In this document: positions 9,919-32,000 of the stretch, piece by piece
How the letters are laid out: every line of letters begins with the position of its first letter
How positions within the stretch are numbered: the stretch's first letter is position 1
Origin: Promethearchaeota archaeon
Lineage (GTDB): Archaea; Asgardarchaeota; Hermodarchaeia; Hermodarchaeales; Hermodarchaeaceae
DNA: 32,000 nt
Reading direction: 5' to 3'
Assembly (NCBI GenBank): GCA_048938295.1
Contig: JBHLMI010000019.1
Location: 1-32,000 of the forward strand
Notes under the pieces: model-generated
Seen by the model: only the letters and a program-made list of their open reading frames with translations
What the model was told of the DNA's origin: nothing
The model's database searches: none
Program-made: the position numbers and the translations under genes

Positions 9919-11928
9919 CTAGAAACGCTTCGTCTGCAGCCCCAAGTACGCCTCAATCTCATTGATAAGGTCACGTAGGTCTGCCGCTCGTTCGAATTCT
10001 AGTTCTTCTGCAGCCTGAAGCATCTCTTCACGTAGTTCGACAATCAACAGGGCGAGATCACTTTCATTCGCAGTACGCCAGTTTTTAGGTACTTTTACCT
10101 GCGCCCGTGAACTCGCGGTAACACGTTCCACTCCTTCAGCGATATCAGTAATTGATTTCACAATTGTTGTGGGGGTGATGCCGTGTTCCTTGTTGTATTT
10201 GAGCTGCATGGCCCGGCGTCGGTTGTTTTCTGTGATCGCCCGAGTCATAGAATCAGTCATACGATCCGCATACAAGATCACTGTCCCGCTGACATTCCGG
10301 CTCGCCCGCCCCATGATTTGAATCAAGCTGGTATCGGAGCGGAGAAAACCTTCCTTGTCCGCATCGAGAATCGCAACAAGTGATACTTCTGGTAAGTCCA
10401 GGCCTTCCCGGAGCAAATTAATACCAACAACTACCTCGTGTTTCCCTTGGCGTAGGTTCCGTAGTACCTCGATTCGCTCAAGGGTGCCGATTTCAGAGTG
10501 AAGATATTCGGCTTTAACCCCAGCATGAACCATGTAATCCGCTAAGTCTTCGGCCATACGTTTTGTTAGAGTAGTCACTAAGGCGCGTTCATCTTTTTTA
10601 GCTCGAATTCGGATCTCTCCCAACAAATCTTCGATTTGGCCTTCTGTGGGTCGCACGATGATTTCAGGATCCACTAGCCCGGTGGGCCGGATGATTTGTT
10701 CTACCACTTTGTCTGAATGTTTTCGTTCATAACTTGAAGGGGTGGCAGACGTGTAGAGAACGGTGCGCATGTAGGGCTCAAATTCTTCGAAGGTTAAGGG
10801 ACGATTGTCAAATGCAGAGGGTAATCGAAAGCCGTAATCTACGAGGTTTCGTTTTCGGGATAAGTCACCATAATACATCCCTCCAATTTGTGGCACAGTG
10901 ATGTGGGACTCATCAATTACAAGGAGGAAGTCCTCAGGGTAATGATCTAATAGGCAGTAGGGTTTCTGTCCTTGTTTGCGTCCATCAAAGTAGCGCGAAT
11001 AGTTCTCGATGCCACCAGTCCATCCTACGGAGCGCATCATCTCGATGTCATATTTCACGCGTCGTCGTAGTCGGTCAGCTTCTAGGATTTTCTCTTGAGC
11101 CTCGAGTTCCTTCAGTCGTTCCTCGAGTTCGTCTTCGATTTGTTCCAAGATTTCAGGAAGGATCCGCTGGTCGGTGGTAAACTGCTTTGCAGGGAAGATT
11201 TTGATCTTTTCGCGTTCGTAGAGCACTGTTCCTTTGATTGGAGCAATGTCGGCGATGCGTTCAATAGTATCACCAAATGTTTCAAGGCGAACTGGATGAT
11301 TGGCATAGGCTGGGAAGACCTCGATCACGTCACCACGAACGCGGAAGGTTCCTCGGTGGAAGTCAAAATCATTTCGGGTATAATTGATGTGGACTAACCG
11401 GGCGAAGAGCTCATCACGTTGAATCTCTTGGCCCTGTGCAAGCTCCACGACTAGGTTTCGATAGGAGCCGGGGGCCCCGATGCCATAAATGCAGGAGACG
11501 GTGGCAACGATGAGCACATCCCTTCGGACGGCAAGAGAGGCAACCGCCGATAGGCGCATCCGTTCTACTTCTTCGTTAATCGAGGCGTCTTTTTCGATGT
11601 AGGTATCTGATGTGGGCATGTACGCTTCGGGTTGAAAGTAATCGTAATAAGAGGTGTAGTATTCTACGGCGTTCTCGGGGAAATATTCCCGAAACATGCT
11701 TGTGAGTTGTGCGGCAAGGGTTTTGTTAGGGGAAATGACCAGTGTTGGTTTCTGGAGGGCTTCCACAACAGAGGCCACCGTGAAGGTTTTGCCAGAGCCT
11801 GTCACGCCTAAGAGTGTCTGTTGGCGTTTACCCTCTTTATAGCTTTTAATGATCTTCTGGATGGCTTTGGGTTGATCACCACGTGGGGTATAATCTGGAT
11901 TGAGTTCGAACCTACGCGAAGTGGCCAC
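9919..11928 (-). CDS. uvrB: Excinuclease ABC subunit B
   Basis: PRGDQPKAI, LLGVTGSGKTFT, beta-hairpin YYDYFQPEAY, DESH, GINLLREGLDLPEV, GRASRN and C-terminal UVR (LEFERAADLRD); GTG start with GGGAGG upstream. Confidence 0.98.
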   Translation of the reverse strand: MATSRRFELNPDYTPRGDQPKAIQKIIKSYKEGKRQQTLLGVTGSGKTFTVASVVEALQKPTLVISPNKTLAAQLTSMFREYFPENAVEYYTSYYDYFQPEAYMPTSDTYIEKDASINEEVERMRLSAVASLAVRRDVLIVATVSCIYGIGAPGSYRNLVVELAQGQEIQRDELFARLVHINYTRNDFDFHRGTFRVRGDVIEVFPAYANHPVRLETFGDTIERIADIAPIKGTVLYEREKIKIFPAKQFTTDQRILPEILEQIEDELEERLKELEAQEKILEADRLRRRVKYDIEMMRSVGWTGGIENYSRYFDGRKQGQKPYCLLDHYPEDFLLVIDESHITVPQIGGMYYGDLSRKRNLVDYGFRLPSAFDNRPLTFEEFEPYMRTVLYTSATPSSYERKHSDKVVEQIIRPTGLVDPEIIVRPTEGQIEDLLGEIRIRAKKDERALVTTLTKRMAEDLADYMVHAGVKAEYLHSEIGTLERIEVLRNLRQGKHEVVVGINLLREGLDLPEVSLVAILDADKEGFLRSDTSLIQIMGRASRNVSGTVILYADRMTDSMTRAITENNRRRAMQLKYNKEHGITPTTIVKSITDIAEGVERVTASSRAQVKVPKNWRTANESDLALLIVELREEMLQAAEELEFERAADLRDLINEIEAYLGLQTKRF

Positions 11929-12030: not shown

Positions 12031-13236
12031 TTAGAAGGTATAGGGATTGTATAGCGGTAGTTGTGGGAACCAGCCGTGGATGAGTTTCCGGGTGGAGTCG
12101 CTTATCCCCTTTATCCATCCATTATACTCAAGGGCTTCAATGGAATGAGTACCGTAGACAAGGGCACTAAGTCCCTGGATTGAGGTTTCGAGTTGGGCAC
12201 TCCGTTTTGTCATACTCACGTCGAGTTGGTCATTAGTTGATTTGAGTAGGTAAGTGCCGTTATTCCAGCCACACTGAGAATCTGTCAGTGTAAGAATGAG
12301 TTCGCCGTCAGTTGATACTGGAAGTCCTTTAAGAGCTTCTTTGGCGTCAATGACACGTACCATCCAAGGGTGCCAGACCTTGATTTCAATCCAGTCTTGG
12401 AGGTGTTCGAACCAGTGTTGAAAATCTGTTCCATAGGGCAAAATCATGTGGATGGTTTGGATTTGATCCCGGTGTTTGCCTAAAAAATTAAAGAGGACGG
12501 CTTGAGCTTGGAGGGAGCGCCAGTACATTTCTCTGATTGTGAGTTCGCCTTGTTCGAAGTGCATGTACCCTTTGAGTGTGTAACGAGCGAGGGCTTCGAC
12601 TTTACCGGCTTTTTTAATGAAGACGTAGTGATGGTCTTTGTTGCGGCGGCGCCATTCCTCATCCCGGATTGAAGGGTTGTATGCATATCCATGAAACTTG
12701 GTAAGTGCGAAGGCTTTGATGAAAGTCATATAGAGTTCTTTGGCTTCGTGTCCTGGAAGTCGTTCAACTGTCCATTCATCGCCAATCATACTATCTGATG
12801 GTACACGTAGGCCACTCATAGGAGCTTTCAATCGGAATTTGTCACACGCAGGGGCATATCCAAGGTGTGTGTAGAAGGATTCTCGGAAGGGTTCAAGCAT
12901 GCTTACTGAGAGTTCAGTTTCCTTCATTTCAAGAAAAGCGCTTTGCATGATTGATCGGACATAGCCTTTCATCCGGTTTTCCGGATTGGTGCAGATCATG
13001 GAAAGACCGCCCATGCCCTTAAGAATGCCGCGAATTGATTGCTGGGTACGCATAATAGTGGCAACCGAAACGAGAGTATCGTTCTCAAAAAGTCCGATGC
13101 TATTTTCAGGAATCATAAAATTGTGGTCTTCATCACGGACATCTTGGTCTGTCCAAAACCCGTAGGAGTATTGATGGAGTTTGATGACATTAATCATGTC
13201 CTCTTTGGTGAGTTTTCGGATTTCCATTTGCATCAC
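12031..13236 (-). CDS. Eis-like GNAT acetyltransferase (tandem GNAT plus SCP2-like C-terminus), paralog 1
   Basis: Acetyl-CoA motif ICTNPENRMKGY, then PFRESFYTHLGY, WMVRVID...AL, D..CGWNNGTY and a terminal YTF; 401 aa. Confidence 0.85.
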   Translation of the reverse strand: MMQMEIRKLTKEDMINVIKLHQYSYGFWTDQDVRDEDHNFMIPENSIGLFENDTLVSVATIMRTQQSIRGILKGMGGLSMICTNPENRMKGYVRSIMQSAFLEMKETELSVSMLEPFRESFYTHLGYAPACDKFRLKAPMSGLRVPSDSMIGDEWTVERLPGHEAKELYMTFIKAFALTKFHGYAYNPSIRDEEWRRRNKDHHYVFIKKAGKVEALARYTLKGYMHFEQGELTIREMYWRSLQAQAVLFNFLGKHRDQIQTIHMILPYGTDFQHWFEHLQDWIEIKVWHPWMVRVIDAKEALKGLPVSTDGELILTLTDSQCGWNNGTYLLKSTNDQLDVSMTKRSAQLETSIQGLSALVYGTHSIEALEYNGWIKGISDSTRKLIHGWFPQLPLYNPYTF

Positions 13237-21289: not shown

Positions 21290-22504
21290 TTAGAAGTATA
21301 CGACATTATACAGGGGGAGAGGTGGGAACCACCGTTGAAGTGCATGTCTAGCCCATTCTTCTGTGATTGATAGTTCAGCTTGAAACTCTAATTCCTCTAT
21401 TGGATGTGTTCCGTAGACTAAGGCTGAGAGCGCTTGAATGGTAGCTGTTACTACAGGATGCCCTGAGCTTTTAGTTAGTCGTAGGCGTCCCTTTTCTGAT
21501 TGAAGTGAGAAGATTCCATTGTTCCAGGGACAGTTGGCATCTGTGAGTTCGATGGTGACGGTGTCATCTCCAGCACCTGGAAGGTTTTGGACTGCGTTCT
21601 TCGCGTCGATGATGCGAACCATCCAAGGAGTTCTAGCCTGATTAACTTTCAACTGTGCATCTTTGAACCAATGTTCAACCTTGGTATCGAAGGGAGCATG
21701 TATGCGGATATTTTGAATTTGGTCCTGGTGTTGTTTGAAAAAGAAAAAGAGCTTGTCACGAGCTTCTCGAGTTCGCCATAAGAGATCGAGGACATGCATA
21801 GTGGAGTGGGTTTCACCTTCGATTTGTACTCCTTTAATCCGATACCGGCTTAAAGCTTGGATTTGGCCCTTATATTTGACAAAGACAATGAGACTTTCCT
21901 TTGTAAACTGTCTCCACAGAGCATCAGGGAAGGTTTTGAAAATGAGGTAACCGTGATAGTGTGTAGGACCTATTTCGCAGACAAATTTTAGATATTCTTC
22001 TTTGGCATTTCGTGCGCGAACCCTCTCAAAGGTCCAGTCCAGATTCGGTTGTGTTGCGTCGAATATGTTAAGCTGTTTGAGCGGGGCTTGTACAATATAT
22101 GCGGTATTTGCTGCAACGTACCCGAATTGTTCATAGTAGCTTTGTTTAAAGGGATCGAGCATACTGACCGGTTGCCCCTTCTCGTGCATCATCTTGAACC
22201 CTTCCTGCATTAATTCCCGCACATATCCCTTCCGCCGCGCTTCCGGGTATGTTGCAATACCAGCTACCCCTCCACAATCCTTGAGTACACCACGGATTGA
22301 TTGTTGGAATTCGTGGACGCTTAAAGAGGAGACCAAGCGCCCTTTTTCAAACAGCCCCAGAGTTTCTTGTTCAATAATGAGATCTAGTTCTTCGCTCTTC
22401 TCATCCTGATCTGTCCATTCCGTGTATGCATATCGGTAGAGCGCCATGATGGCAGGGCGTTCATTCTTGGTAATTTTCCGAATTTCCTTCATCAGAAGAT
22501 CCAT
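21290..22504 (-). CDS. Eis-like GNAT acetyltransferase, paralog 2
   Basis: VAGIATYPEARRKGY, PFKQSYYEQFGY, WMVRIID, DANCPWNNGIF and terminal VYF; clearly homologous to 12031..13236. Confidence 0.87.
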   Translation of the reverse strand: MDLLMKEIRKITKNERPAIMALYRYAYTEWTDQDEKSEELDLIIEQETLGLFEKGRLVSSLSVHEFQQSIRGVLKDCGGVAGIATYPEARRKGYVRELMQEGFKMMHEKGQPVSMLDPFKQSYYEQFGYVAANTAYIVQAPLKQLNIFDATQPNLDWTFERVRARNAKEEYLKFVCEIGPTHYHGYLIFKTFPDALWRQFTKESLIVFVKYKGQIQALSRYRIKGVQIEGETHSTMHVLDLLWRTREARDKLFFFFKQHQDQIQNIRIHAPFDTKVEHWFKDAQLKVNQARTPWMVRIIDAKNAVQNLPGAGDDTVTIELTDANCPWNNGIFSLQSEKGRLRLTKSSGHPVVTATIQALSALVYGTHPIEELEFQAELSITEEWARHALQRWFPPLPLYNVVYF

Positions 22505-22578: not shown

Positions 22579-23559
22579 ATGAAGAAGAAACCAACACTCG
22601 TACTTTACCATCCTTTAATGGCTGTTGAGGGGTATCCGGTACTAGCTGGTCGGGTGCAACCAGCGTTTGAATATTTACGCGACACGGGAACATTGGAGTC
22701 TCCTCAGGTTATTGTAGAAGAAGCGCCTAGAGTAGGTGAGGATTTGCTCCTGCAGGTGCACACCCCTGGTCACATTCAGCATGTTAAAGGATCAGGGTAT
22801 GATTCTGCTTCGCTCGTGTCAGGTGGATCCGCGGTGAGAGCAGGTGAAGCGGTTTGGGTTGGTGAAGCAGCGAATGCGTTTGCTTTTACTGGCTGTGCTG
22901 GACACCACGCTAGTCGTGATTCATCCTGGGGTTTTTGCTATTACAACAACTCTGCCCTACTTGTCCGACATTTGCAAAAAGTACATGGAGCCAATCGATT
23001 TTTCATCGTTGATACAGACCCCCATCCAGGGGATGGAACCCGTGACATCCTCGGGAATGATGAGGAAGTATACCATTTAAACTTCGAGGCGAGTTTCCGG
23101 GAAAGCCTGGATACGGTGACGCAGCGGCATGTGGATGTCCCTTTCCCCAGTTCGAGTAGTGATGACTCCTTTGTAGAAGCTGTGCGTCTCCTAGCGCTGC
23201 CCTTGGCACGACGAATCCGTCCTGAGATTATTTTTTGGAACATGGGCCATGATGCTCATGCGCTAGACTATGGTGGGTTTAATCTCTCGTTAAGGGCATT
23301 TCCCGCTATGACCGAGATACTGCTCCAAGCTGCAGATGAAGTCTGTGAAGGTCGGTTGGTGGTGCTACTCTCAGGTGGCTCTGAGGTATCTGTGGCAAAG
23401 CATGCAATATCTGGTATTGTAAGAAAACTAGCGGGTCTACCTCAATTGCCTGAAGATGTGCAAGATGAGCCTACGACGGAGTCAGCAGCAACGAAGCGGA
23501 TGGCAGAAGAGATAATCATGAAAGTACGTTCCAAACTAGGTCTGGATGAACCCAGCTAG
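22579..23559 (+). CDS. Histone deacetylase (Zn-dependent amidohydrolase) family protein
   Basis: LLQVHTPGHI, GHHA, GFCYYNN, DTDPHPGDGT and GHDAHALD. The terminal motif is SGGS instead of EGGY. Confidence 0.88.
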   Translation: MKKKPTLVLYHPLMAVEGYPVLAGRVQPAFEYLRDTGTLESPQVIVEEAPRVGEDLLLQVHTPGHIQHVKGSGYDSASLVSGGSAVRAGEAVWVGEAANAFAFTGCAGHHASRDSSWGFCYYNNSALLVRHLQKVHGANRFFIVDTDPHPGDGTRDILGNDEEVYHLNFEASFRESLDTVTQRHVDVPFPSSSSDDSFVEAVRLLALPLARRIRPEIIFWNMGHDAHALDYGGFNLSLRAFPAMTEILLQAADEVCEGRLVVLLSGGSEVSVAKHAISGIVRKLAGLPQLPEDVQDEPTTESAATKRMAEEIIMKVRSKLGLDEPS

Positions 23560-23933
23560 AAGGAATCCCAGGACAAAAAGGTGAGATAGATGAGGTATTG
23601 GAGGTCTTTAAGTTTAGATATGAATCGTCCTTTGCGCTGCTTTTGCTGGGGATTTGGCGGAGGAGCCTTTTCAGGTTGAGACCGAGTTGATTCCTCTTTC
23701 TTAGAGAAAGTTGGTTCAATTGGTGGTGTGGTGCCAGCCTGTGATTGGGATACTGGTCGAGTCATGAGAGTTTCATTTCGGAAAATTACACTCAACGGAT
23801 TTGCAGTATCGATTTGTCCATCAGCGAACTGAATATCGTTATAGAATTGTTTCCAACGTCGAACGGCGTGTTTAACCCAACTGGGAGCCTTTTTGTGAAC
23901 CAACCCATCAACTCCAAAAGTGATGCAAGCCAA
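23556..23933 (-). CDS. Hypothetical protein (last gene of the SMC operon, or the 3' part of a split gene)
   Basis: TTG start without a clear SD; same frame as the upstream Zn-finger ORF; Pro/Gln-rich linker; its stop overlaps the HDAC stop (CTAG). Confidence 0.45.
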   Translation of the reverse strand: MACITFGVDGLVHKKAPSWVKHAVRRWKQFYNDIQFADGQIDTANPLSVIFRNETLMTRPVSQSQAGTTPPIEPTFSKKEESTRSQPEKAPPPNPQQKQRKGRFISKLKDLQYLIYLTFLSWDSF

Positions 23934-23990
23934 TTTGGATAAGAAGGCATCAGCTGTTGATGGGTAAATAGTTTATGTCCTTGGACAATT

Positions 23991-24452
23991 TCAGCTAGTA
24001 CTGCCAACTTTTTCCCAAGTTTTCCATTTACCTTGGGATCGCTGCACTAACACGAGGCCAAAGCGTTGCCAGATTTCTTCTCGGGTGAGAGGTTCTTCGG
24101 AGTCCGATTCCATTTGACTTGGGTGGCGTGGTTTCTCTAAAACAGAAGGTCTAGTATAGAAGAGGGAGTCGATGAGGGCACCCACACGACCTTTCTGATA
24201 TTGATCTTTGACGAAGATGAGGAGCTGTTCTGTGGGAATATCGGCCACTTGCAAGGAATGGCGGGCCACTCCTTGGCTAAACGAGGGGCAGACGCCACCC
24301 ATGGTGTTTTGGACAATTCCAAGACATTGGGGATCAATGAAAAATTGACAACGTAGACATTGGTGCCATCCCTTCTGGATCGCCTCTTCAAGTGTGATTC
24401 GGGTTCCGCAGGCGACACAACTGATGCCAACGGTGGAGAGATCAAGTTTCAT
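23991..24452 (-). CDS. RING-like (Nse1-type spacing) Zn-finger protein
   Basis: From ATG 24452 (GGAGGA 8 nt upstream; 11-nt overlap with the KITE gene): C12-x2-C15-x16-C32-x2-C35-x4-D40-x2-C43-x11-C55P-x8-H65. Confidence 0.65.
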   Translation of the reverse strand: MKLDLSTVGISCVACGTRITLEEAIQKGWHQCLRCQFFIDPQCLGIVQNTMGGVCPSFSQGVARHSLQVADIPTEQLLIFVKDQYQKGRVGALIDSLFYTRPSVLEKPRHPSQMESDSEEPLTREEIWQRFGLVLVQRSQGKWKTWEKVGSTS

Positions 24453-25026
24453 TCGCGTCTTCCTCCGAATCAGCTGTGGCTCCTGCGAGATACAGGGTTG
24501 CCGCAGTAGCGATGGCTTCACGACGTTCAGCATCAAATTCTAATTCAAGCCGTGGACCATAAGCAAGGCGTCGTGCAGTTCGCGTAATATAGCCCAGTTC
24601 GATTAATCGTCGTAATATGCGATCGAGTTGGTAGCGGGAGAGGCGCCCGCGGGCTACAAGGATCGTTTCGATGTCTTTTGTGGCTACCTGGCGTGGACGA
24701 CGGAGTTTACTCACCCGTTCCACAGTGGAAATGATGACTCCCAATACCGCGTATTCAGGATCGGTGAGTTCGCCAGGTACCCCGTAAATGGTTCGAACAC
24801 AGTAAAGCGTGTCCCGTCCCATTCGATATTCAACCAATTCTAGTCCCAGAGGAGATATCTGTTGGCGGAGTAAATCGAGAAGACGGACTAAGCCAGTCTT
24901 GTTGACATGAAGGGCTTCTAAAAGATCTTGCCGTTTGACCCCGATGCTGAGTTGACCTTCCTCATTTCGAAACCTTGCTGTGAGGGCCGCAAAGAGCTGA
25001 CCAAGGAGATGACGTTGTTCTATCAC
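24442..25026 (-). CDS. KITE-family tandem winged-helix protein (Nse1/Nse3/MAGE/ScpB-like)
   Basis: Two WH-like halves: 'LLRQQISPLGLELVE', 'LTDPEYAVLGVII' and 'LRRLIELGYI...YGPRLELEF'. GPRxxLE is typical of Nse3/MAGE and Nse1 WH-B. Located in the SMC operon; GTG start. Confidence 0.7.
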   Translation of the reverse strand: MIEQRHLLGQLFAALTARFRNEEGQLSIGVKRQDLLEALHVNKTGLVRLLDLLRQQISPLGLELVEYRMGRDTLYCVRTIYGVPGELTDPEYAVLGVIISTVERVSKLRRPRQVATKDIETILVARGRLSRYQLDRILRRLIELGYITRTARRLAYGPRLELEFDAERREAIATAATLYLAGATADSEEDANET

Positions 25027-25085
25027 CTCTTCCTCTGTATCCTTGCTAGTGGAAGAGATAGTGTCAGAAGGTATCGGATCTGAGG

Positions 25086-25877
25086 TTATTGCCGAGGAAC
25101 CTCCTCATGGTTTTGTGCGGTAATGGCAACAGCAGCGAAGGCAGGATTCGATTTAGGCGGAGGGCCTCGAAAAATGATTGCTGTTTTTTCGAAAATTGCA
25201 GGGCAGATGTTATCACGAATCATTTGACTGAGTAGATCGAGTTCCCAATTGGTCAGGATTTCTGATAAGGCTGCATAGTTGAAACGTTTGCCCTGTAGCC
25301 GTTTTAAGATAGCCGTCCTTCTAGCGTCAAGGGCGTCAATGGAGATTTGTTCAAATGAGATACGATGTTTGCGCATAGCCTGTTTATCATCCTGGGTAGG
25401 AGCGTGGTCCAATGCGACGGGTGAATCAACAGAGGGCAATTCGAATGGTGGGATTGTCCGCTCTTGATTAATTAGAAAGAGTAAGGGAGTCGCGCGCCGT
25501 TTAATCTCATTGGCAAACTGAGAAATCCATTCTTCGGGAGCAATTTCAGGAGCAGCTAATTGAGAATCTCGGTGATGCTGCATTGAAGCGAGAGTATAGT
25601 AGAAACGTCCGTCAAGAGTTCGTTCCCAGGGCGTTTCGAGGATGCGATATGCATCAGCAACTTCTTCACGGTCAACCTCCGCTTCCTTAATCGGAAACGT
25701 GTTGTGCTGTTTTAGGGCAACCTCATACTTTTTGGTCAAGTTCCATAGTGTAATTACAATCCCTTTGGTTCCAAAGGATGTGAGGCGTGTTCGCTTGTAG
25801 TTGTATTGGAAGGTGTCGTACCAGGCTTTGCGGCGCGGAAAGGCACGGAGAAATGTAGAGGTATCATTGGTAATCAT
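25086..25877 (-). CDS. Hypothetical protein, putative kleisin-like SMC partner
   Basis: Translationally coupled to SMC (TAATG overlap) and lies between SMC and KITE. It has a helical N-part, a Pro-rich linker and a possible C-terminal WH ('ILKRLQGKRFNYAAL...LLSQMIRDNIC'). The kleisin call is mainly positional. Confidence 0.5.
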   Translation of the reverse strand: MITNDTSTFLRAFPRRKAWYDTFQYNYKRTRLTSFGTKGIVITLWNLTKKYEVALKQHNTFPIKEAEVDREEVADAYRILETPWERTLDGRFYYTLASMQHHRDSQLAAPEIAPEEWISQFANEIKRRATPLLFLINQERTIPPFELPSVDSPVALDHAPTQDDKQAMRKHRISFEQISIDALDARRTAILKRLQGKRFNYAALSEILTNWELDLLSQMIRDNICPAIFEKTAIIFRGPPPKSNPAFAAVAITAQNHEEVPRQ

Positions 25878-28771
25878 TAGGCTTTCACCTGTCCTTTGAT
25901 CAGCACTACGTGATGCATAGTTTCTGGAATTTCGAGTCCCACCGTGGAGGGGGCCATTAGAAGAAACTGAGGATGAATTAGTGAGTCTTCCTGGGTTAAA
26001 TCGAGAGCGCGTTGAACTACACTGAGAATAGCTGCTCGGCTTGCTTCATCGAGGCGTTGGGTAAATTCATCAATGACATGGAGGGGACTCTTGGCAAGAG
26101 TGTGGAGGGCTAAAATAAAAGTCTGGGTGGCTAGGACCCGTTCGCCTCCAGACATTTCTTGATAGGTCCGCCAGTCGCCTTTGCGGTTAATGGCAAGTTG
26201 AAGGTGCAGCTCCGCACGACTGGGTTCATCGGGGAATCGAATAAGCAGTTTGACTTGCTTAAGGAAGTGGCTGAGTAATTGGTTCATGCGGTGGTTGAGG
26301 GTTTCAACCGTCTCTTGAAGCTGCCGTCTCCACTCGAGTAGTCTTCGATCAACGTCTGTCATCAGATTTTCTAAGTGGAGCTGACGTTGTTTTAGGTAGT
26401 CTTGGAGTTGGGAGACGACTTTTTCCTGGTCTTCAAAGGCTTGCCGATCTTCTGCTGTGGCGGTGATAGTATCAATCATCGCTTGGAGTTGGATTTGTTC
26501 ATCACGAACGGCTGTAGGGTTTCGAACAGTCTGTGGACGTTCTCCCAGCGCAGTGGCAGCCTTGCGGAAGTCCTTAGTTTGTTTTATGAGATGCTCATAT
26601 TCATCTTCGCGTTGCTTGAGTTCTGCAACGAGGTGGTTGATTTCAACCTGACGACGGGATCGTCGGAGGTCAAGGTTTTGGAGTTGTTCGGATAACTTTT
26701 GCTGTCGCGAGTTCAGCGGTGATAAGTCTGAGCTACATTCTTGATAATCTTGGCTGAGTCTGTCGCATTCAGTTTCCAGTTCAAGAATCTGTTGTTGTAA
26801 TTCGGCTACGCGGTGTTCAGAACCAGTGACCAGGGCTGTTCTTTCCTCATCAGAAAGATGAGATGAGTGGACTTGCTGAAGGTCTTGGAGGGTTGCCCGT
26901 AATTGGCTTATTTCAGAATTGATATGCATGCGGTCTCGCATTAAGCGAGCTTCTTGTTCCCGAAGTTCACGGAGTTGGATGCGTGTGTCAGCGCCGTCCT
27001 GAGCTAGCCCCAAATCTTTGAGTGATACATTCAGACTGACCGTAACTGGTCGGGGTGGTCGTGCAAAGGCACCGATCCGGAGATAATGACTCGTTCCTTC
27101 GCTAGTGATAATGTTGCCATTGAGTTGCTGAGAGGCATCGACTAGCGTATTGGGGTCGGCTCCTTCCTCTGCGATGGCAGTGTTTACGACTCGACTTAGG
27201 AAACTAATGGCATAGATATCCCCTTCAATGAGATCAGCAGCCCACCCAATGACAGGTGAAGAGACCGTGGGGCGATCTCGAGCTATCGCGGTGGTGGGGT
27301 TTGTTCGGGCGACCACCAAATCTGGTTTTTCATTTGGCCAGAGATGATCATAGAGGTTTTTAGCCTCAACGAAGACCTCTCGGTTCAGGGCAATGAATGC
27401 ATAGGTGTAGCGGCCCAATGCCAGTTTGACTGCGGTTTCGTACTGTGCATACTCTGGTTTCATACGAATAAGCGTAAAAAGGGGCCCAATCACTGCATCA
27501 GAGAGTGCTAGTTTATCAAGTTCAGACCGGTAACGAAGACAGGCCCGAAGTATCGTCTCTTCAAAATGTGGATACCGTTGGGGTTGAGTAAAGAGGTGCT
27601 CCTCCGTTATGGCAATATCTTGTCGGACCTGAACAAGTTGATCATCGATACCATCCCGATCCTGTATAATCGTCGCTAATTCTCTCTGAATGTCGTCAAT
27701 TTTGCTTTTTGCGGGTTTCCGACGTTTGTTGTACCGTTCTGTTCGAGCTAGCATACCTTTGAGTTCGTTTTCTAGCCCTTGTCGATGACCTTGGGCTTGC
27801 ATCCTTTCATCGCGTATCGAGTCCATGGTTGTAAGGAGCTTTTCCCGTTTTGCTTCAATCGCTTCGAAGTTCTCTTTCAGGTTGGCTTTCCTTTCGTCTA
27901 ACTTAGCCATTTTCTCGTTTTGGTCGGTGAGTTGGGTTTCAAGGCTGGTAAGTTGCGATTGGAGTTGGCTAGCGAGTTCTTCACGATAAGTCACTTCAGC
28001 CCAGGCAGCTTCAACATCGAGATCCTTCTGCCTTTGTTGGAGTTGCTGTTTTTGCTGAAAAGCTTCATAAGCTGCCTTTAGAACCTGAAGGCGCTGTTCT
28101 TCGTGGCGGATTCGGTATTCGAGGGGTTTGACATTGGCTTTAGCCTGTAATACGAGGAGACGGGCTTCCTCGAGTTTTTCCATCCAGTTGCGGAGCCCAG
28201 TTTCGTTCAAGAGAGTCTCGAATTTCCGCCGTGGGGATTGGGAGGCAAAGTGGTCTAAAGTCTCAGCCTCAGTAACGGCTAGGGGAGAATCCCCAAAGAG
28301 TCCAGCCGCTTGAAAGAGTTTCCGAATGTCCTTCCGAGCAATTTGCTGGCCATTCAGTGAGCGTTTTCCATTCAACCAGTAGGATATCCGGTTCGTTTCA
28401 TCGACTCGAAGTCGAATCGATACAACATCCGTATCAAGAAGCGTAGACATGGCAGGATCTGGGCTTCTTAAGACACGTCGACCGTTGAGTTGGTAGTTGT
28501 TAAGTTCTAGAATGACTTCAGCATATTTGTTGAAGCGACCGATGAAGGCCGAATTGCGTTGGCGTTGGGCTCTTCGAGATTCAACGCCAATGGCGAGTAA
28601 CAGGGCGTCGAGAATCAGGGTTTTTCCGCTTCCGTTAGAACCTGTAATTAGTATGACAGGGGATTCATCGAGTTGGATTTTGGTGTCACGGTGAATGACA
28701 AAGTTCACTAGGCGGATGCTGCGAAACACGACTGATGAAGTTGATAGGGACATCTCGTGCCTAGTGGTCAT
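25877..28771 (-). CDS. SMC-family ATPase, SMC5/6-like
   Basis: N-terminal IRLVNF..H with Walker A GSNGSGKT (44-51) and ILDALLLAIG; coiled coils; hinge-like VIGPLFTLI...AVKLALG..YAF; signature MSGGER, FILALHTLAKSPLHVIDEF..RLD, and QFLLMAP in place of the His switch, as in SMC5/6; 964 aa. Confidence 0.88.
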   Translation of the reverse strand: MTTRHEMSLSTSSVVFRSIRLVNFVIHRDTKIQLDESPVILITGSNGSGKTLILDALLLAIGVESRRAQRQRNSAFIGRFNKYAEVILELNNYQLNGRRVLRSPDPAMSTLLDTDVVSIRLRVDETNRISYWLNGKRSLNGQQIARKDIRKLFQAAGLFGDSPLAVTEAETLDHFASQSPRRKFETLLNETGLRNWMEKLEEARLLVLQAKANVKPLEYRIRHEEQRLQVLKAAYEAFQQKQQLQQRQKDLDVEAAWAEVTYREELASQLQSQLTSLETQLTDQNEKMAKLDERKANLKENFEAIEAKREKLLTTMDSIRDERMQAQGHRQGLENELKGMLARTERYNKRRKPAKSKIDDIQRELATIIQDRDGIDDQLVQVRQDIAITEEHLFTQPQRYPHFEETILRACLRYRSELDKLALSDAVIGPLFTLIRMKPEYAQYETAVKLALGRYTYAFIALNREVFVEAKNLYDHLWPNEKPDLVVARTNPTTAIARDRPTVSSPVIGWAADLIEGDIYAISFLSRVVNTAIAEEGADPNTLVDASQQLNGNIITSEGTSHYLRIGAFARPPRPVTVSLNVSLKDLGLAQDGADTRIQLRELREQEARLMRDRMHINSEISQLRATLQDLQQVHSSHLSDEERTALVTGSEHRVAELQQQILELETECDRLSQDYQECSSDLSPLNSRQQKLSEQLQNLDLRRSRRQVEINHLVAELKQREDEYEHLIKQTKDFRKAATALGERPQTVRNPTAVRDEQIQLQAMIDTITATAEDRQAFEDQEKVVSQLQDYLKQRQLHLENLMTDVDRRLLEWRRQLQETVETLNHRMNQLLSHFLKQVKLLIRFPDEPSRAELHLQLAINRKGDWRTYQEMSGGERVLATQTFILALHTLAKSPLHVIDEFTQRLDEASRAAILSVVQRALDLTQEDSLIHPQFLLMAPSTVGLEIPETMHHVVLIKGQVKA

Positions 28772-29013
28772 TCTCTCGAGTGCACTCCCGCGGATTATCC
28801 TGAGCAGTTGGCATATTCAATATTGCCCAAGTACAGTAAGTCACAATAATTCGTCACTCTTAAACTTTCACTCCAACCAAAGACGAAGCGCCATTGCTCT
28901 GTGATTTTGAGCCGACCTATTCTCTTTCATGATTAAAGAAGGACGAGCATGCGTCTAAGATTCGAGTAAAGTTAAAGTGCGTGCTGTGACCTTCCCCTTG
29001 TAGGTGAATAGTA

Positions 29014-29334
29014 TTGAGTAAAGATGAAGGATTTTGGCGCTCAATCATCGTCGATGTTGAACCCCGTCAAAAGGAATTCCGAATCGGCATTGATGAAGAT
29101 ACCCGTGTCGATGAAGTCATCCGCACTCTTGTCACCCAGGCCCGTGATGAGGGCGTCAGTATTGACGATTGGGCTAAAGCAAAAATCGGGGACCAGCGTG
29201 CAGAATTTGTGCTCATTCGTAAAGCCCCTGAACCCACCAGGTTAAGCCCAGGTGTAACCTTCGGAGAGCTGGAACCAAAAATCACAGATGATGAGTTCTT
29301 CCTCCTCGATGTTGTCCCTGAAGTCGGACAATAG
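29014..29334 (+). CDS. Ubiquitin-like (beta-grasp) protein ending in -EVGQ
   Basis: TTG start with AGGTGA SD (29002-07). Pattern beta1 SIIVDV, beta2 EFRIGI, 'DEDTRVDEVIRTL' helix, FVLIRK, 'LSPGVTFGEL..I.DDEFFLL', then PEVGQ*. Next to an E2-like gene. Confidence 0.7.
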   Translation: MSKDEGFWRSIIVDVEPRQKEFRIGIDEDTRVDEVIRTLVTQARDEGVSIDDWAKAKIGDQRAEFVLIRKAPEPTRLSPGVTFGELEPKITDDEFFLLDVVPEVGQ

Positions 29335-29385
29335 CAAAAAAGTCTTCACACCTCTGGACGAAAACAGGAACTAAAGGAGATAATC

Positions 29386-30129
29386 ATGATCCGACCAGTA
29401 TTTTCTACCGAGCTGTTTAACGCCAGAGTGGAAACCCAGATTCAGACATTCTTTGATACCATGAACAATCTCTTTGGACGACGAGGATGGGATCCAGATC
29501 CTCCGCACCGCGAAGATACCGTCTGGAGCAATCGCGATTTCACCGTTGCTATCATCGATCGATACCGTGATGGGGCGTTTAAACGGATTCGCTTCACTAT
29601 GCGTTATCTTCCCGGGTTCGTTCGTAAACCCAGAAATCTAGAGGATACAAACGCTATACGTTATGAGCATCGGTTTGTCTTTGATTTACCCCGAGAGTAT
29701 CCTCAGAACATCGGCACTATTCGACCTATAGCCGAAACACCTCTGTATCACCCCAGACTAGCGGCTAGTGGAACTGGACATGCCTGCTACTCGGTTCGTG
29801 GGGAATTAGATCGTATCCTCGAAGATCTCCCCTTTTTTGTATTGCTAAAACCAGATCGAGTAGAACCACCATCTCAGTTTCAATCTGACCACGGTCTAAA
29901 TATGGCCGCTATGGCGTGGTATGAGCAAGATACAGATAGAATCGTTGAAACCTTAGATCAGCTCTGGGAAGCCCAGCACAAAGATGGTCCAGCTGCGCCT
30001 TCACGACAGGGACGGGTGCGTATTCTTGAAACCTCATCGACTAGCGGGCATTCAGGTCGAAGGTCACCCCGCGTTTTAGATGAACCAAGTAGACATACAT
30101 CGGTTCGGATTCTAGATGATGAGAGTTAG
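29386..30129 (+). CDS. E2/UBC-fold ubiquitin-conjugating-like protein with disordered C-terminal tail
   Basis: 'FVFDLPREYPQ...ETPLYHPR...G.GHAC' (H122-P123-R124; C134 is the only Cys) and 'GLNMAAMAWYEQD' match the UBC consensus F.I..P..YP...T..YHPN...G..C...LN..AA..Y; SD AAGGAG. Confidence 0.8.
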   Translation: MIRPVFSTELFNARVETQIQTFFDTMNNLFGRRGWDPDPPHREDTVWSNRDFTVAIIDRYRDGAFKRIRFTMRYLPGFVRKPRNLEDTNAIRYEHRFVFDLPREYPQNIGTIRPIAETPLYHPRLAASGTGHACYSVRGELDRILEDLPFFVLLKPDRVEPPSQFQSDHGLNMAAMAWYEQDTDRIVETLDQLWEAQHKDGPAAPSRQGRVRILETSSTSGHSGRRSPRVLDEPSRHTSVRILDDES

Positions 30130-30143
30130 ATGAGGTACCAACC

Positions 30144-30362
30144 ATGCCGGATTCACCTTTAAAGGAGAATGACACCCCCGACGAGCATGAGGAAGAGCTT
30201 GACAAATCATCGAAGGAACCTGAGAGGAAATCGCGGATTCAGATTCTCCGAGAGAGAGACATTCCCTTTGAAGAAGAACGTCCTCCCAACTTCTCACCCT
30301 ACTATTCCATTATAATTCATGGCAAAAAGAAACGATCTGAGCTAAAGGAGCGAGAGTCATGA
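30144..30362 (+). CDS. Small charged, probably disordered protein (72 aa)
   Basis: GAGGT SD; ATGA coupling to the next gene; contains RIQILRE and SIIIH. Confidence 0.6.
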   Translation: MPDSPLKENDTPDEHEEELDKSSKEPERKSRIQILRERDIPFEEERPPNFSPYYSIIIHGKKKRSELKERES

Positions 30363-30754
30363 GTGTGCATGGTGCATCCCAAATGCGGTGTGCGGCCTGT
30401 GCCACTCAAGTTTCACTTGAAAATGCACGGAGCCAATGGTGGATTTGCACAGTCTGTGGCAGCTATGTCTGTCCTTCGTGTCGTGCCCTCTTCTTAGAAT
30501 CAGGGCAAGACACCTGCCCCGGAGCAATTGTCCGTGGCAGTGAAGCCCACTCTCCCCACTTTACTCGGTTTTTGGGCCCTCGACTGGAATCGGAAAGTCA
30601 ACCTGCTGAGACACGAAGGCCTGTGAGAATATTAGGTGATGTCTCCAGACACTCACCTCAACCACCGGGTGGAAAAGTAGTTATTCTGTCAGATGAAGAG
30701 GGAATCGAATCCAGCTCTGAAGCCGACCAAGTAGGTCGAGATAATGACGAGTAA
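30359..30754 (+). CDS. RING-like/ZZ-like Zn-finger protein with acidic SIM-like tail
   Basis: C11-x2-C14-x15-C30-x2-C33-x4-C38-x2-C41-x11-C53P-x9-H64; paralog of 23991..24452; tail has VRILGD and VVILSDEE. Confidence 0.72.
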   Translation: MSVHGASQMRCAACATQVSLENARSQWWICTVCGSYVCPSCRALFLESGQDTCPGAIVRGSEAHSPHFTRFLGPRLESESQPAETRRPVRILGDVSRHSPQPPGGKVVILSDEEGIESSSEADQVGRDNDE

Positions 30755-32000
30755 CCTCCCCCTGTCTTTAAAAATCATCGCCCCTACGAGGCAAGATGGT
30801 GTTCCTAGAGTTAAAGCCGGTCAACGCATTTCTATTCAGTTGCAACGAAAAGGTCAAGCAAAATCGAATATTAAGGTTGACAATGGGGTCGTATACATCA
30901 ATGATCCCTTCGGGCGCATGGTGAGTAAGGTCCCTTTTCATTTTGGCAAAACTAATACAGGTGAATTTAGCGTGCCACTGACGGCAAACCTGCTGTCTGG
31001 ATTCTATACAATTCTCGTTGCTTTGCAGGAAACCCGCATCAAGCTCGCCGTCGATAAGTATCCCTATCGGGGACCTCCCAACGATCATTATGTCATGGGA
31101 TGCTTTCTCTTAGAAGGAGGACATCCACCCATTGTAGTACACAGGGTCAATTATTCGGCGACCGTGAAGAACATTACACGTGCTCGAATCAGCGATGTTC
31201 GAGTCATAATCGCTGCTCCACCCTCGCTACCTCCTCGACAAACGGTTCTAGATATTAGGTTCTCTCCGAAGGATGGACAACAACAGAATGATACCATCGG
31301 AAACCAATGGATTCGATTTCGTCAAGGAAGCCTTGCTGTGGGAGAATCCTTTACTTGTGGGTACACCGCGCTCATTCGGAATCGCGCACTCCGGTATAAT
31401 ATTCCGCCAGAAACTCACAACTCAACGTTACCAGCTAATATCGTCAAGTTCACCCAACCAGAGAATTTCATCGAATCACACCACCACCTCATCAAAGATC
31501 TTGCTCGTGATATTGCAAAAAATCATTCAACACCAATACAATTTGTACAAGCAGCGATGAGGGTAATTACAAAGAAGATGCGGTATGTTCGTCAAGAGTA
31601 TGAAAGAGGAGCAGCCTACGCTATCGAAAAAGGGGTTGGTGATTGCACTGAATATGCCGCTCTATTTGCTGCGTTGTGTCGTGCGAACAAAATCCCAGCC
31701 CGATTGGAGGCAGGCTATGCCTTTGATGGACAGTCCTGGGAACGCCATGCTTGGAGTGAAATTTGGATTCGGGGCCAATGGATCCCGGTTGATCCAACCT
31801 GGCATGGGGCTATGGGATTATTGGGAGTGACAAACCGACATATTCCTCTTATCATTGGAAACTGGATGGATACTCGCATCCGCCAAGAATTCAAAGTCAG
31901 CTGGTACTCTGATACTGTTGCTCTTGATGGAAAAAAGGGTGAGCGTTCTGAGCCCAAGATTGAGACGGGGTGGAAGGTGAAACGGGTGGTGGGTGTCCCT
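30744..32000 (+). CDS. Transglutaminase-like (Cys-His-Asp) protein, 3' truncated
   Basis: Not in the ORF track. I traced an open frame from ATG 30744 to the window end (419 codons, no stop). It contains GVGDCTEYAALFAALCRANKIPAR, RHAWSEIW and WIPVDPTW (C301, H335, D350), overlaps the previous gene by 11 nt, and has no obvious signal peptide. Confidence 0.85.
   Translation, partial: MTSNLPLSLKIIAPTRQDGVPRVKAGQRISIQLQRKGQAKSNIKVDNGVVYINDPFGRMVSKVPFHFGKTNTGEFSVPLTANLLSGFYTILVALQETRIKLAVDKYPYRGPPNDHYVMGCFLLEGGHPPIVVHRVNYSATVKNITRARISDVRVIIAAPPSLPPRQTVLDIRFSPKDGQQQNDTIGNQWIRFRQGSLAVGESFTCGYTALIRNRALRYNIPPETHNSTLPANIVKFTQPENFIESHHHLIKDLARDIAKNHSTPIQFVQAAMRVITKKMRYVRQEYERGAAYAIEKGVGDCTEYAALFAALCRANKIPARLEAGYAFDGQSWERHAWSEIWIRGQWIPVDPTWHGAMGLLGVTNRHIPLIIGNWMDTRIRQEFKVSWYSDTVALDGKKGERSEPKIETGWKVKRVVGVP

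Follow-up and report, generated by a model that had tools for sequence, protein, structure and literature searches.

The present study suggests that a divergent gene cluster of an Asgard archaeon brings together an SMC5/6-like complex and a dedicated system for conjugating a ubiquitin-like protein (Ubl), and that the two work as a pair. The cluster lies in a 32,000-nucleotide (nt) stretch of DNA, referred to here as the window, which covers the initial 32 kb of a 49-kb contig (C16; GenBank JBHLMI010000019.1, assembly GCA_048938295.1) from a metagenome-assembled genome (MAG) of 2.5 Mb and 92% completeness. Close relatives of this MAG are labelled Candidatus Hermodarchaeota or Promethearchaeota, that is, Asgard archaea. 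We put the probability that the locus is one functional unit at roughly 0.62. The first of its two proposed parts is a second, SMC5/6-related complex composed of an SMC ATPase, a kleisin-like bridge, a winged-helix, kite-like subunit and a RING-like zinc finger protein, ZnL. The proposed second part is a private Ubl system made up of a ThiF-type E1, a UBC-fold E2, a Ubl with a Val-Gly end, a JAB isopeptidase and a small protein of 72 amino acids (aa), p72, which are joined at this locus by a further zinc finger protein, ZnR, and a transglutaminase-fold enzyme (TGase). The proposal is carried by the gene content of the locus, the UBC fold of the E2, the families to which the E1, JAB and TGase proteins belong, the Smc6-like similarity of the ATPase and the recurrent genomic coupling of the two parts.

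The SMC module and its zinc fingers

The SMC protein matches the Pfam SMC_N family at 78.5 bits (cut-off 40) over residues 18-924, and a Walker A motif (GSNGSGKT), the signature SGGE and a Walker B motif (DEFTQ) can be read in its translation; the hinge is matched weakly (PF06470, E 0.011, 16.5 bits against a cut-off of 22.5, residues 427-518). When a family profile built from 12 diverse orthologues (alignment A6) was searched against the sequences of the Protein Data Bank (PDB), the five best matches were all Smc6, at 144-130 bits. Lower scores were given by Pyrococcus Smc (104 bits), Smc4 (95 bits), Smc2 (90 bits) and Smc5 (70 bits), with Smc1-4 at 95 bits or less. The canonical SMC of the same genome, used as a control, matched Smc and Smc1-4, and at E<=1e-20 it gave no match to Smc5/6. 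The term "Smc5/6-like" used in a preliminary description of this DNA is supported as far as similarity goes, and it agrees with published phylogenies of Asgard SMC5/6-related operons (10.1101/2024.01.07.573240; PMC8665677). Orthologues of the protein score above 1000 bits and occur in some Asgard families only, the next-best SMC reaches 346 bits and the rest no more than 122 bits; by these scores the group is sharply delimited from most other Asgard SMCs. Elsewhere in the genome lie a canonical SMC-ScpA-ScpB operon (contig C39) and a Rad50-Mre11-HerA-NurA operon (contig C53), and the locus therefore encodes a second SMC complex. The idea that its SMC operon is the sole condensin of the genome was rejected in view of the operon on C39.

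In every lineage, the gene for a 263-aa protein is found between those for the SMC and the kite, and its family has conserved N- and C-terminal blocks around a variable middle (alignment A5). Searches of Pfam, NCBIfam, PADLOC and PDB sequences gave no match to this protein, and the Atlas gave no usable one; its position, the pattern of conserved ends and the published SMC-kleisin-kite gene order make it a kleisin candidate. The 194-aa protein encoded next, the kite candidate, has one sub-threshold winged-helix match in its C-terminal half (MarR_2, E 1e-4); the Atlas features add leads such as DUF4194/MksE and MAGE clusters, none of which reaches a score of 0.9. Its family profile weakly matches two genes, the kite-position gene of a generic Asgard SMC5/6-type operon (locus L121, 12.6 bits) and, at another locus (L119, 44 bits), one lying some 5 kb away from the SMC. 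Alignment by hhalign of the kite family with ScpB and of the kleisin family with ScpA, both from 14-16 Asgard genomes, was no better than swapped controls, with the exception of a weak kite-ScpB alignment (102 columns, E 0.11), and the kite, kleisin, Ubl and ZnL family profiles found nothing significant among PDB sequences. In one genome (G132), the kleisin candidate and the kite occupy a single 497-aa frame (L050:5608-7098), which is either a natural fusion or an artefact of assembly or frameshift; if real, it would support the two proteins acting together.

The fourth gene of the operon, ZnL, encodes an N-terminal RING-like zinc finger followed by a conserved C-terminal domain. Eight ligand positions are conserved (C12, C/H/D15, C32, C35, C/D40, C43, C55 and H65; alignment A7), and the corresponding pattern, C-x2-[CHD]-x16-C-x2-C-x4-[CD]-x2-C-x9-11-C-x8-9-H, is present in 15 sequences from seven lineages; in the predicted structure these ligands would form a cross-brace. 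The best matches of the AlphaFold2 (AF2) model, which has a pLDDT (predicted local distance difference test) score of about 90 over residues 1-88, are almost all RING, U-box and SP-RING domains, and they are weak (VIA Z 4.0-5.2; Foldseek E of at least 0.43). They include Nse2 SP-RING chains (Z 4.1-4.5); VIA, Foldseek and the profile search of the PDB gave no match to an Nse1 chain. The spacing C-x2-C-x4-X-x2-C fits an Nse1-type RING. As in RINGs that bind E2 enzymes, the first Cys of ZnL is still followed by a hydrophobic residue and the seventh ligand by a Pro. The ZnL gene lies directly 3' of the kite gene in eight Asgard families as well as in Planctomycetota MAGs, a genomic pattern that marks its product as a general fourth subunit of this SMC group.

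ZnR, encoded in the opposite operon, is a paralogue of ZnL: BLASTP aligns the two over 56 aa at E 1e-6, with 30% identity and every Cys and His in register, and a ZnL profile likewise recovers ZnR, with values of 1e-5 to 1e-9, from over 20 related genomes. ZnR has an acidic tail that resembles a SUMO-interacting motif (SIM) and weak Pfam matches to cross-brace families (zf-UDP, FYVE and zf_RING-like). Its gene is limited to two lineages and invariably accompanies the TGase gene, in the same operon here and 7-9 kb past the end of the gene string in Heimdallarchaeota-labelled MAGs.

The Ubl-conjugation module

Among 11 orthologues of the Ubl, V104 and G105 are invariant, and what follows the Gly is nothing, Q, IK, F or L, that is, zero to two residues, the window copy having Gln. 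An invariant Val-Gly with a variable tail therefore has the form of a precursor-type extension, the signature of a processed Ubl precursor. The Atlas feature neighbours of the protein all fall in the ubiquitin clan, at weak scores of 0.89 or less, and neither Pfam nor the profile search of PDB sequences gave a match.

The 247-aa protein encoded next is confirmed, through its predicted structure, as a noncanonical UBC-fold E2. Its AF2 model has a mean pLDDT of 76 and a core above 90. The 50 best Foldseek matches are nearly all UBC E2s, with probabilities of 0.98-1.0, the exception, Fts, being an inactive E2 variant; the 50 best VIA matches are all E2s (Z 7.6-8.4) and span 127-145 residues, nearly the whole UBC core. 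Moreover, all 59 PDB matches of the family profile are E2 enzymes, aligned on the active-site region (best E 0.009). The motifs PREYP, H122-P123-R124 and Cys134 are conserved, with HPR, not HPN, and the Cys kept in at least 90% of sequences (alignment A2). No match to the Pfam UQ_con family was found even at E<=1, and the family is small, with 57 clusters among 1.84 billion representative proteins. A relationship to the UFM1/UFC1 or ATG8/ATG3 systems, considered for the single-Gly VG end and its extension, found no support, as the HPR of the E2 is of the HPN type and its matches are canonical UBC enzymes. The E2 family, narrowly distributed and characterized by an HPR active site, a single-Gly Ubl and an obligate small partner, is a new addition to the prokaryotic Ubl systems.

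That partner, p72, carries the motif PPNFSPYY.I.IH, and its gene lies directly 3' of the E2 gene in nearly every lineage examined, including Planctomycetota; it was not detected at one locus of family f24 (L053). No family match was found for p72 in Pfam, NCBIfam or PADLOC, and NCBIfam and PADLOC hold no family for the accessory proteins. The tail of the E2 is disordered and ends in VRILDDES. At the extreme C-terminus of many members of the E2 family, a basic stretch precedes a psi-x-psi-psi-[D/E] motif (VRILDDES, KVVILED, KLKILE), the strict pattern occurring in 18 of 42 sequences where 4.3 would be expected; the motif recurs in the ZnR tail and in p72 (window positions 30016-30129, 30240-30260 and 30620-30700) and resembles a SIM.

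The remaining enzymes belong to recognized families. The E1 matches ThiF (PF00899, E 6e-35, 120.9 bits, cut-off 28.1), the isopeptidase matches Prok-JAB (PF14464, 36.5 bits, cut-off 25), and the TGase matches Transglut_core (E 2e-24, 86 bits), with the expected Cys, His and Asp triad readable in its translation. Here, as in families f5 and f24, the TGase gene belongs to the Ubl operon, and in family f25 it lies 7-9 kb from the SMC operon. The preliminary description listed Ubl, E2, p72, finger and TGase for the right-hand operon; these stand, and the list was incomplete, the E1 and JAB genes lying just past the end of the window. They directly follow the TGase gene on the opposite strand, convergent with it (L002:2353-3811), so that the locus has a complete set of Ubl, E1, E2 and isopeptidase. 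Contig C53 carries, at about 3.7-7.0 kb, a separate, canonical and eukaryote-like cluster with genes for ubiquitin (matched at 45.7 bits), for a UQ_con E2 (112.7 bits) and another UQ_con-like protein, and for a homologue of ThiF-type E1 enzymes. The genome thus encodes two Ubl conjugation systems, of which the one linked to the SMC is private.

Linkage of the two modules across genomes

Among relatives of the locus, linkage of the two modules recurs, with differing arrangements, in several lineages that diverged deeply, as the preliminary description would lead one to expect. In Hermodarchaeota relatives from two genera, the divergent layout is kept while identity to the window falls to 58% for the SMC and 48% for the kleisin candidate. 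In Heimdallarchaeota-labelled MAGs, by comparison, the genes follow one another on one strand in the order SMC-kleisin-kite-ZnL-JAB-E1-Ubl-E2-p72, with ZnR-TGase 7-9 kb downstream, and identity to the window is 28% for the SMC and 53% for the Ubl. In another genome (G022), SMC-kleisin-kite-ZnL-JAB-E1 and Ubl-E2-p72-TGase are on two different contigs. A short contig of Candidatus Sifarchaeum carries kite-ZnL-JAB-E1, and on short contigs of family f24 JAB directly follows ZnL (G126/L113) or adjoins it on the opposite strand (G127/L065). The order SMC-kleisin-kite-ZnL-JAB-E1 is also present in three Planctomycetota MAGs (GC content 0.62-0.71, 4.8-8 Mb; loci L110, L111, L112 and L115-L117). Other contigs of the same three genomes carry a Ubl ending in VVG followed by the E2 and, in the sole locus long enough, by p72. 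The SMC copies of these bacteria are without the hinge and mid-arm region (profile positions about 340-650) and so have shortened arms. The Planctomycetota copies imply, on the evidence of gene content, that both modules have been transferred between archaea and bacteria. Re-linkage in different architectures together with co-transfer across domains argues for one functional unit, and the comparative case for linkage of the modules, as judged from genome sequences, is strong. The preliminary description had seen the paralogous finger as what ties the operons together beyond adjacency. The paralogy stands, but ZnR is found in two lineages only, and the E1 and JAB genes inside the SMC operon of other lineages are the stronger tie.

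The families were counted over 400 Asgard genomes, 33 of which have the E2. It is present in 18/18 genomes of family f1, 1/1 of f5, 2/2 of f24, 10/12 of f25 and 0/31 of f4, and none was found in f10, f21 or f22. ZnL is more widespread, occurring in 17/18 genomes of f1, 28/31 of f4, 1/1 each of f5, f10 and f21, 3/3 of f22, 2/2 of f24 and 10/12 of f25. Four f4 loci (L057, L061, L062 and L066), including those of two complete genomes, have SMC-kleisin-kite-ZnL and are without the E2, Ubl, E1 and JAB of this family; a TGase homologue lies about 6-8 kb from the SMC operon in all four. No ScpB was found in the two f4 genomes sampled, and L057 has an extra, head-only SMC fragment about 2 kb upstream.

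The layout of the locus itself is summarized in Table 1. The preliminary description had reported two divergent, tightly coupled operons that share a 242-nt spacer, and an ORF and translation check (ORF, open reading frame) found every ORF it named in place. The SMC and kleisin-candidate genes share 1 nt and the kite and ZnL genes overlap by 11 nt; on the other side, p72 and ZnR overlap by 4 nt and ZnR and TGase by 11 nt. An alignment of the spacer in six Hermodarchaeota relatives revealed two A/T-rich boxes, CTTAAACTTTCAC and AAAGTTAAAGTG, one towards each operon, and GGTGA immediately 5' of the Ubl start. Both boxes are kept in five relatives of genus g1, and in the g2 relative (L024) the second alone is recognizable; from sequence they are likely to be twin promoter elements resembling the B recognition element and TATA box (BRE/TATA).

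Table 1. Features of the locus, in window coordinates unless marked as contig positions
Feature	Position	Strand	Size	Remarks
SMC ATPase	25877-28771	minus	964 aa	second SMC paralogue of the genome
Kleisin-candidate protein	25086-25877	minus	263 aa	
Winged-helix, kite-candidate protein	24442-25026	minus	194 aa	
ZnL zinc finger	23991-24452	minus	153 aa	start is the ATG at 24452, the same in all orthologues
Divergent intergenic spacer	28772-29013		242 nt	between the two operons
Ubl	29014-29334	plus	106 aa	
E2-like protein	29386-30129	plus	247 aa	
p72	30144-30362	plus	72 aa	
ZnR zinc finger	30359-30754	plus	131 aa	
TGase	30744-32345	plus	533 aa	runs past the window end at 32000
ThiF-type E1	32353-33219 (contig)	minus	287 aa	outside the window; Pfam
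Prok-JAB isopeptidase	33191-33811 (contig)	minus	207 aa	outside the window; Pfam

The span originally given to the system, from position 23556, proved too long. It took in a 125-aa ORF (23556-23933, minus strand) that shows 43-77% identity within the genus, is absent from the sister genus and is not conserved beyond the genus, and this ORF was excluded from the system. It lies between the ZnL and deacetylase genes, is of low complexity and rich in Pro, Gln and Lys, and is putative; it may be no gene at all. The histone-deacetylase-family (HDAC) gene abuts the ZnL end of the SMC operon, a position kept in both Hermodarchaeota genera and not in other lineages. Two paralogous GNAT-GNAT-SCP2 (Eis-like) acetyltransferases and this gene occupy window positions 12031-13236, 21290-22504 and 22579-23559. 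Twelve kilobases upstream of the SMC locus lies a bacterial-type excision-repair cluster of UvrC (4919-6757), UvrA (6796-9774) and UvrB (9919-11928). On the far side, the next gene past JAB (L002:3989-5458) encodes a ResIII/Helicase_C helicase with a weak ERCC3/XPB-like match.

Proposed mechanism, alternatives and relation to known systems

Every biochemical step of the mechanism, together with the identity of the E3 and the substrates, is what we infer for a unit of this composition. The Ubl precursor would be trimmed by JAB or by the transglutaminase-fold enzyme to expose Gly105. The E1 would then adenylate the Ubl and hand it to Cys134 of the E2, and the SMC complex on DNA would recruit the charged E2, for which ZnL, the RING-like protein on the kleisin/kite module, would be the most plausible bridge. 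Attachment of the Ubl to SMC subunits, or to proteins trapped with DNA, could regulate loading, turnover or downstream repair or restriction, and JAB would remove the mark. As a RING-like protein encoded with the kite, ZnL would be the most economical E3 candidate. A predicted complex of the E2 core with the ZnL finger gave an ipSAE of 0.54 (runs 0.53-0.59; best control 0.00), a value in the range (up to 0.60) where predictions are wrong more often than right unless the pairing is likely beforehand. The runs agree in their contacts, with partner pLDDT of at least 78, and of 80 solved complexes 58 reach the mark set for complex scores, as do 2 of 110 mismatches. The prediction lends weak support to the pairing, and the score may also reflect likeness to solved RING-E2 complexes; as for the physical link envisaged in the preliminary description, what it offers is a computational hint of E2-ZnL binding.

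Several observations weigh against a single unit of this kind. The assignment of the ATPase as SMC5/6-like, like its Smc6 affinity, is supported by similarity ranking, not by phylogeny. The likeness of ZnL to RING domains is weak, the protein having no sequence match to any RING or to Nse1, and the kleisin, kite and beta-grasp proteins are, from their sequences, candidates. Of the folds named in the preliminary description, then, UBC holds for the E2, a RING/U-box-like fold is suggested for the finger, and beta-grasp and KITE are weak leads. Furthermore, the ZnL-bearing SMC operon also occurs in families that do not have this E2 and Ubl, most clearly f4, and likewise f21 and f22, which means that ZnL is not solely the E3 of this Ubl and that the SMC complex can work without the Ubl. 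Conversely, the Ubl-E2 genes lie apart from the SMC genes in G022, in f24, in the Planctomycetota MAGs and on two metagenome contigs. A structural role for ZnL must be assumed as well, given that the protein is retained in families without the Ubl system; this recalls the debated activity of the Nse1 RING (PMC8750328).

These distributions are also what would be met if the locus held two independent neighbours, an SMC paralogue operon and an unrelated Ubl system that perhaps share a regulatory region and nothing more. The separate Ubl-E2 loci of some lineages and the Ubl-free SMC-ZnL operon of f4 fit such an arrangement. It is disfavoured, and we consider it improbable, as E1 and JAB directly follow ZnL in at least five separate lineages, bacteria included, the full gene set has been re-linked in two different architectures, and both modules are present in 3/3 Planctomycetota genomes. 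Still less probable, to the point of being nearly dismissed, is ligation of the Ubl without E1/E2 chemistry, a Pup-like or transglutaminase-like reaction in which the terminal Gln would serve the TGase-fold enzyme as acyl donor. The Gly-Gln end of the window Ubl and the intact Cys-His-Asp transglutaminase-core enzyme in its operon invite this idea, but the residue after the Gly varies (VG, VGF, VGIK, VGL), VGQ being found in some orthologues only, and this lack of conservation rules out the terminal Gln as the reactive residue. In addition, a cognate E1, E2 and JAB are always present, and the TGase gene is also found near the SMC operon in a family that has no Ubl at all.

A different role for the same genes is that of a transferable defence system against plasmids or viruses rather than a housekeeping one, with the SMC as DNA sensor, as in Wadjet and Lamassu, and the Ubl module as effector arm, as in Bil and CBASS Cap2/Cap3. 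Human Smc5/6 restricts extrachromosomal DNA. The presence of both modules in three high-GC Planctomycetota MAGs points to transfer between domains, and the distribution in Asgard archaea is patchy, as the E2 counts show. Among the PADLOC models, LmuB, JetC and mad3 are matched by the SMC, and the E1 half of the CBASS E1-E2 models, BilD and the CBASS JAB models by the E1 and JAB. These matches, however, amount to generic domain similarity, and PADLOC gave no match for the 263-aa, kite, ZnL, Ubl, E2, p72, ZnR and TGase proteins. The cluster is without a nuclease or other effector (JetD, LmuA) and without a JetA- or JetB-type match. Unlike the contents of defence islands, moreover, the genes are near-universal and single-copy within families (18/18 and 10/12; ZnL 28/31) and keep stable synteny beside the HDAC-family gene, His-tRNA synthetase and EF-2. 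Of the two roles offered in the preliminary description, genome maintenance or defence, we therefore hold a purely defensive one to be unlikely, though the main rival, and favour a dedicated Ubl system that works with the SMC5/6-like complex. Judging by the human complex, the defence and chromosome roles may be compatible.

Smc5/6 is the least understood of the eukaryotic SMC complexes and the sole one with built-in ubiquitin and SUMO ligase subunits, and the reason for this is an open question. A prokaryotic SMC5/6-like complex with a RING-like subunit and a private E1-E2-Ubl-isopeptidase set would move the SMC-Ubl partnership to a time before eukaryotes; the link of Smc5/6 with ubiquitin and SUMO may thus predate them, and the locus could be called ancestral-like in this conditional sense. 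One scenario, tentative and rather doubtful, is that an Asgard SMC5/6-type complex already had a RING-like subunit encoded after the kite and a dedicated Ubl cascade, that Nse1 (winged helix, winged helix, RING) arose by fusion of the kite and finger genes, and that the private Ubl was later replaced by the general ubiquitin and SUMO pathways. If this is true, then the RING-ligase character of eukaryotic Smc5/6 is no eukaryotic invention. In practical terms, a system of about 10 genes that could be reconstituted in vitro would allow the effect of a Ubl on an SMC machine to be asked directly, and the Planctomycetota copies could open the system to bacterial genetics.

The eukaryotic Smc5/6 complex (Smc5, Smc6, the kleisin-position Nse4, the kite-position Nse1/Nse3, the Nse1 RING as ubiquitin ligase and the Nse2/Mms21 SP-RING as SUMO ligase) resembles the locus in combining SMC proteins and kleisin and kite positions with a RING-type finger tied to a Ubl pathway, and the SMC family profile scores highest on Smc6. 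In addition, the finger gene of the locus directly follows and overlaps the kite gene, which reproduces the domain order of Nse1, winged helices and then RING. In contrast to Smc5/6, the locus has one SMC gene, whose product is presumably a homodimer, no equivalents of Nse5/6 were seen at the locus, and the Ubl, E1, E2 and isopeptidase are private to it rather than those of the general system of the cell. ZnL, unlike the Nse1 RING, forms a protein of its own, carries an additional C-terminal domain and has unusual ligands: the second is C, H or D, the fifth is C or D, and the final two are Cys and His. It has no sequence match or top-ranked structural match to the Nse1 RING.

TACK and Asgard archaea are known to possess SMC5/6-related SMC-kleisin-kite operons (Yoshinaga and Inagaki 2021, PMC8665677; van Hooff et al., 10.1101/2024.01.07.573240), and published phylogenies include an Asgard-specific operon set with an Nse3-related kite in Heimdallarchaeota LC_3. 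The locus shares with these operons the gene order, the status of a second complex beside SMC-ScpAB and the Asgard hosts. In those papers, however, the archaeal complexes have three subunits, and the kites are without the Nse1 RING, which is taken to be a eukaryotic innovation (10.1101/2024.01.07.573240); the locus differs in its conserved RING-like fourth gene and in the linked E1, E2, Ubl and JAB genes. With the prokaryotic E1-E2-Ubl-JAB operons (those of Caldiarchaeum and Asgard archaea, PMC3082918 and PMC5654768, as well as Bil and CBASS Cap2/Cap3), the locus has in common a ThiF E1, a UBC E2 with its Cys, a Ubl with a C-terminal Gly and a JAB protein. It departs from them in an E2 that has HPR for HPN and no UQ_con match, in a Ubl with a single Gly after Val instead of Gly-Gly, in the obligate p72 and in the physical link to an SMC operon. 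Archaeal SMC5/6-related operons and prokaryotic E1/E2/Ubl/JAB operons were thus each known already. The literature searched contains no description of a conserved RING-like fourth subunit or of the coupling of the two systems, which is in line with the statement in the preliminary description that archaeal SMC5/6-related ATPases are not known to have been described with a Ubl/E2 cassette. Finally, Wadjet (JetABCD) and Lamassu resemble the locus in an SMC-like ATPase, as the PADLOC matches to JetC and LmuB reflect, in partners at the kleisin and kite positions and in transferability between distant hosts. The locus differs from them in having neither a JetD Toprim nuclease nor an LmuA effector, in partner proteins that match neither JetA nor JetB in PADLOC, and in being conserved within families as a set of core, syntenic genes.

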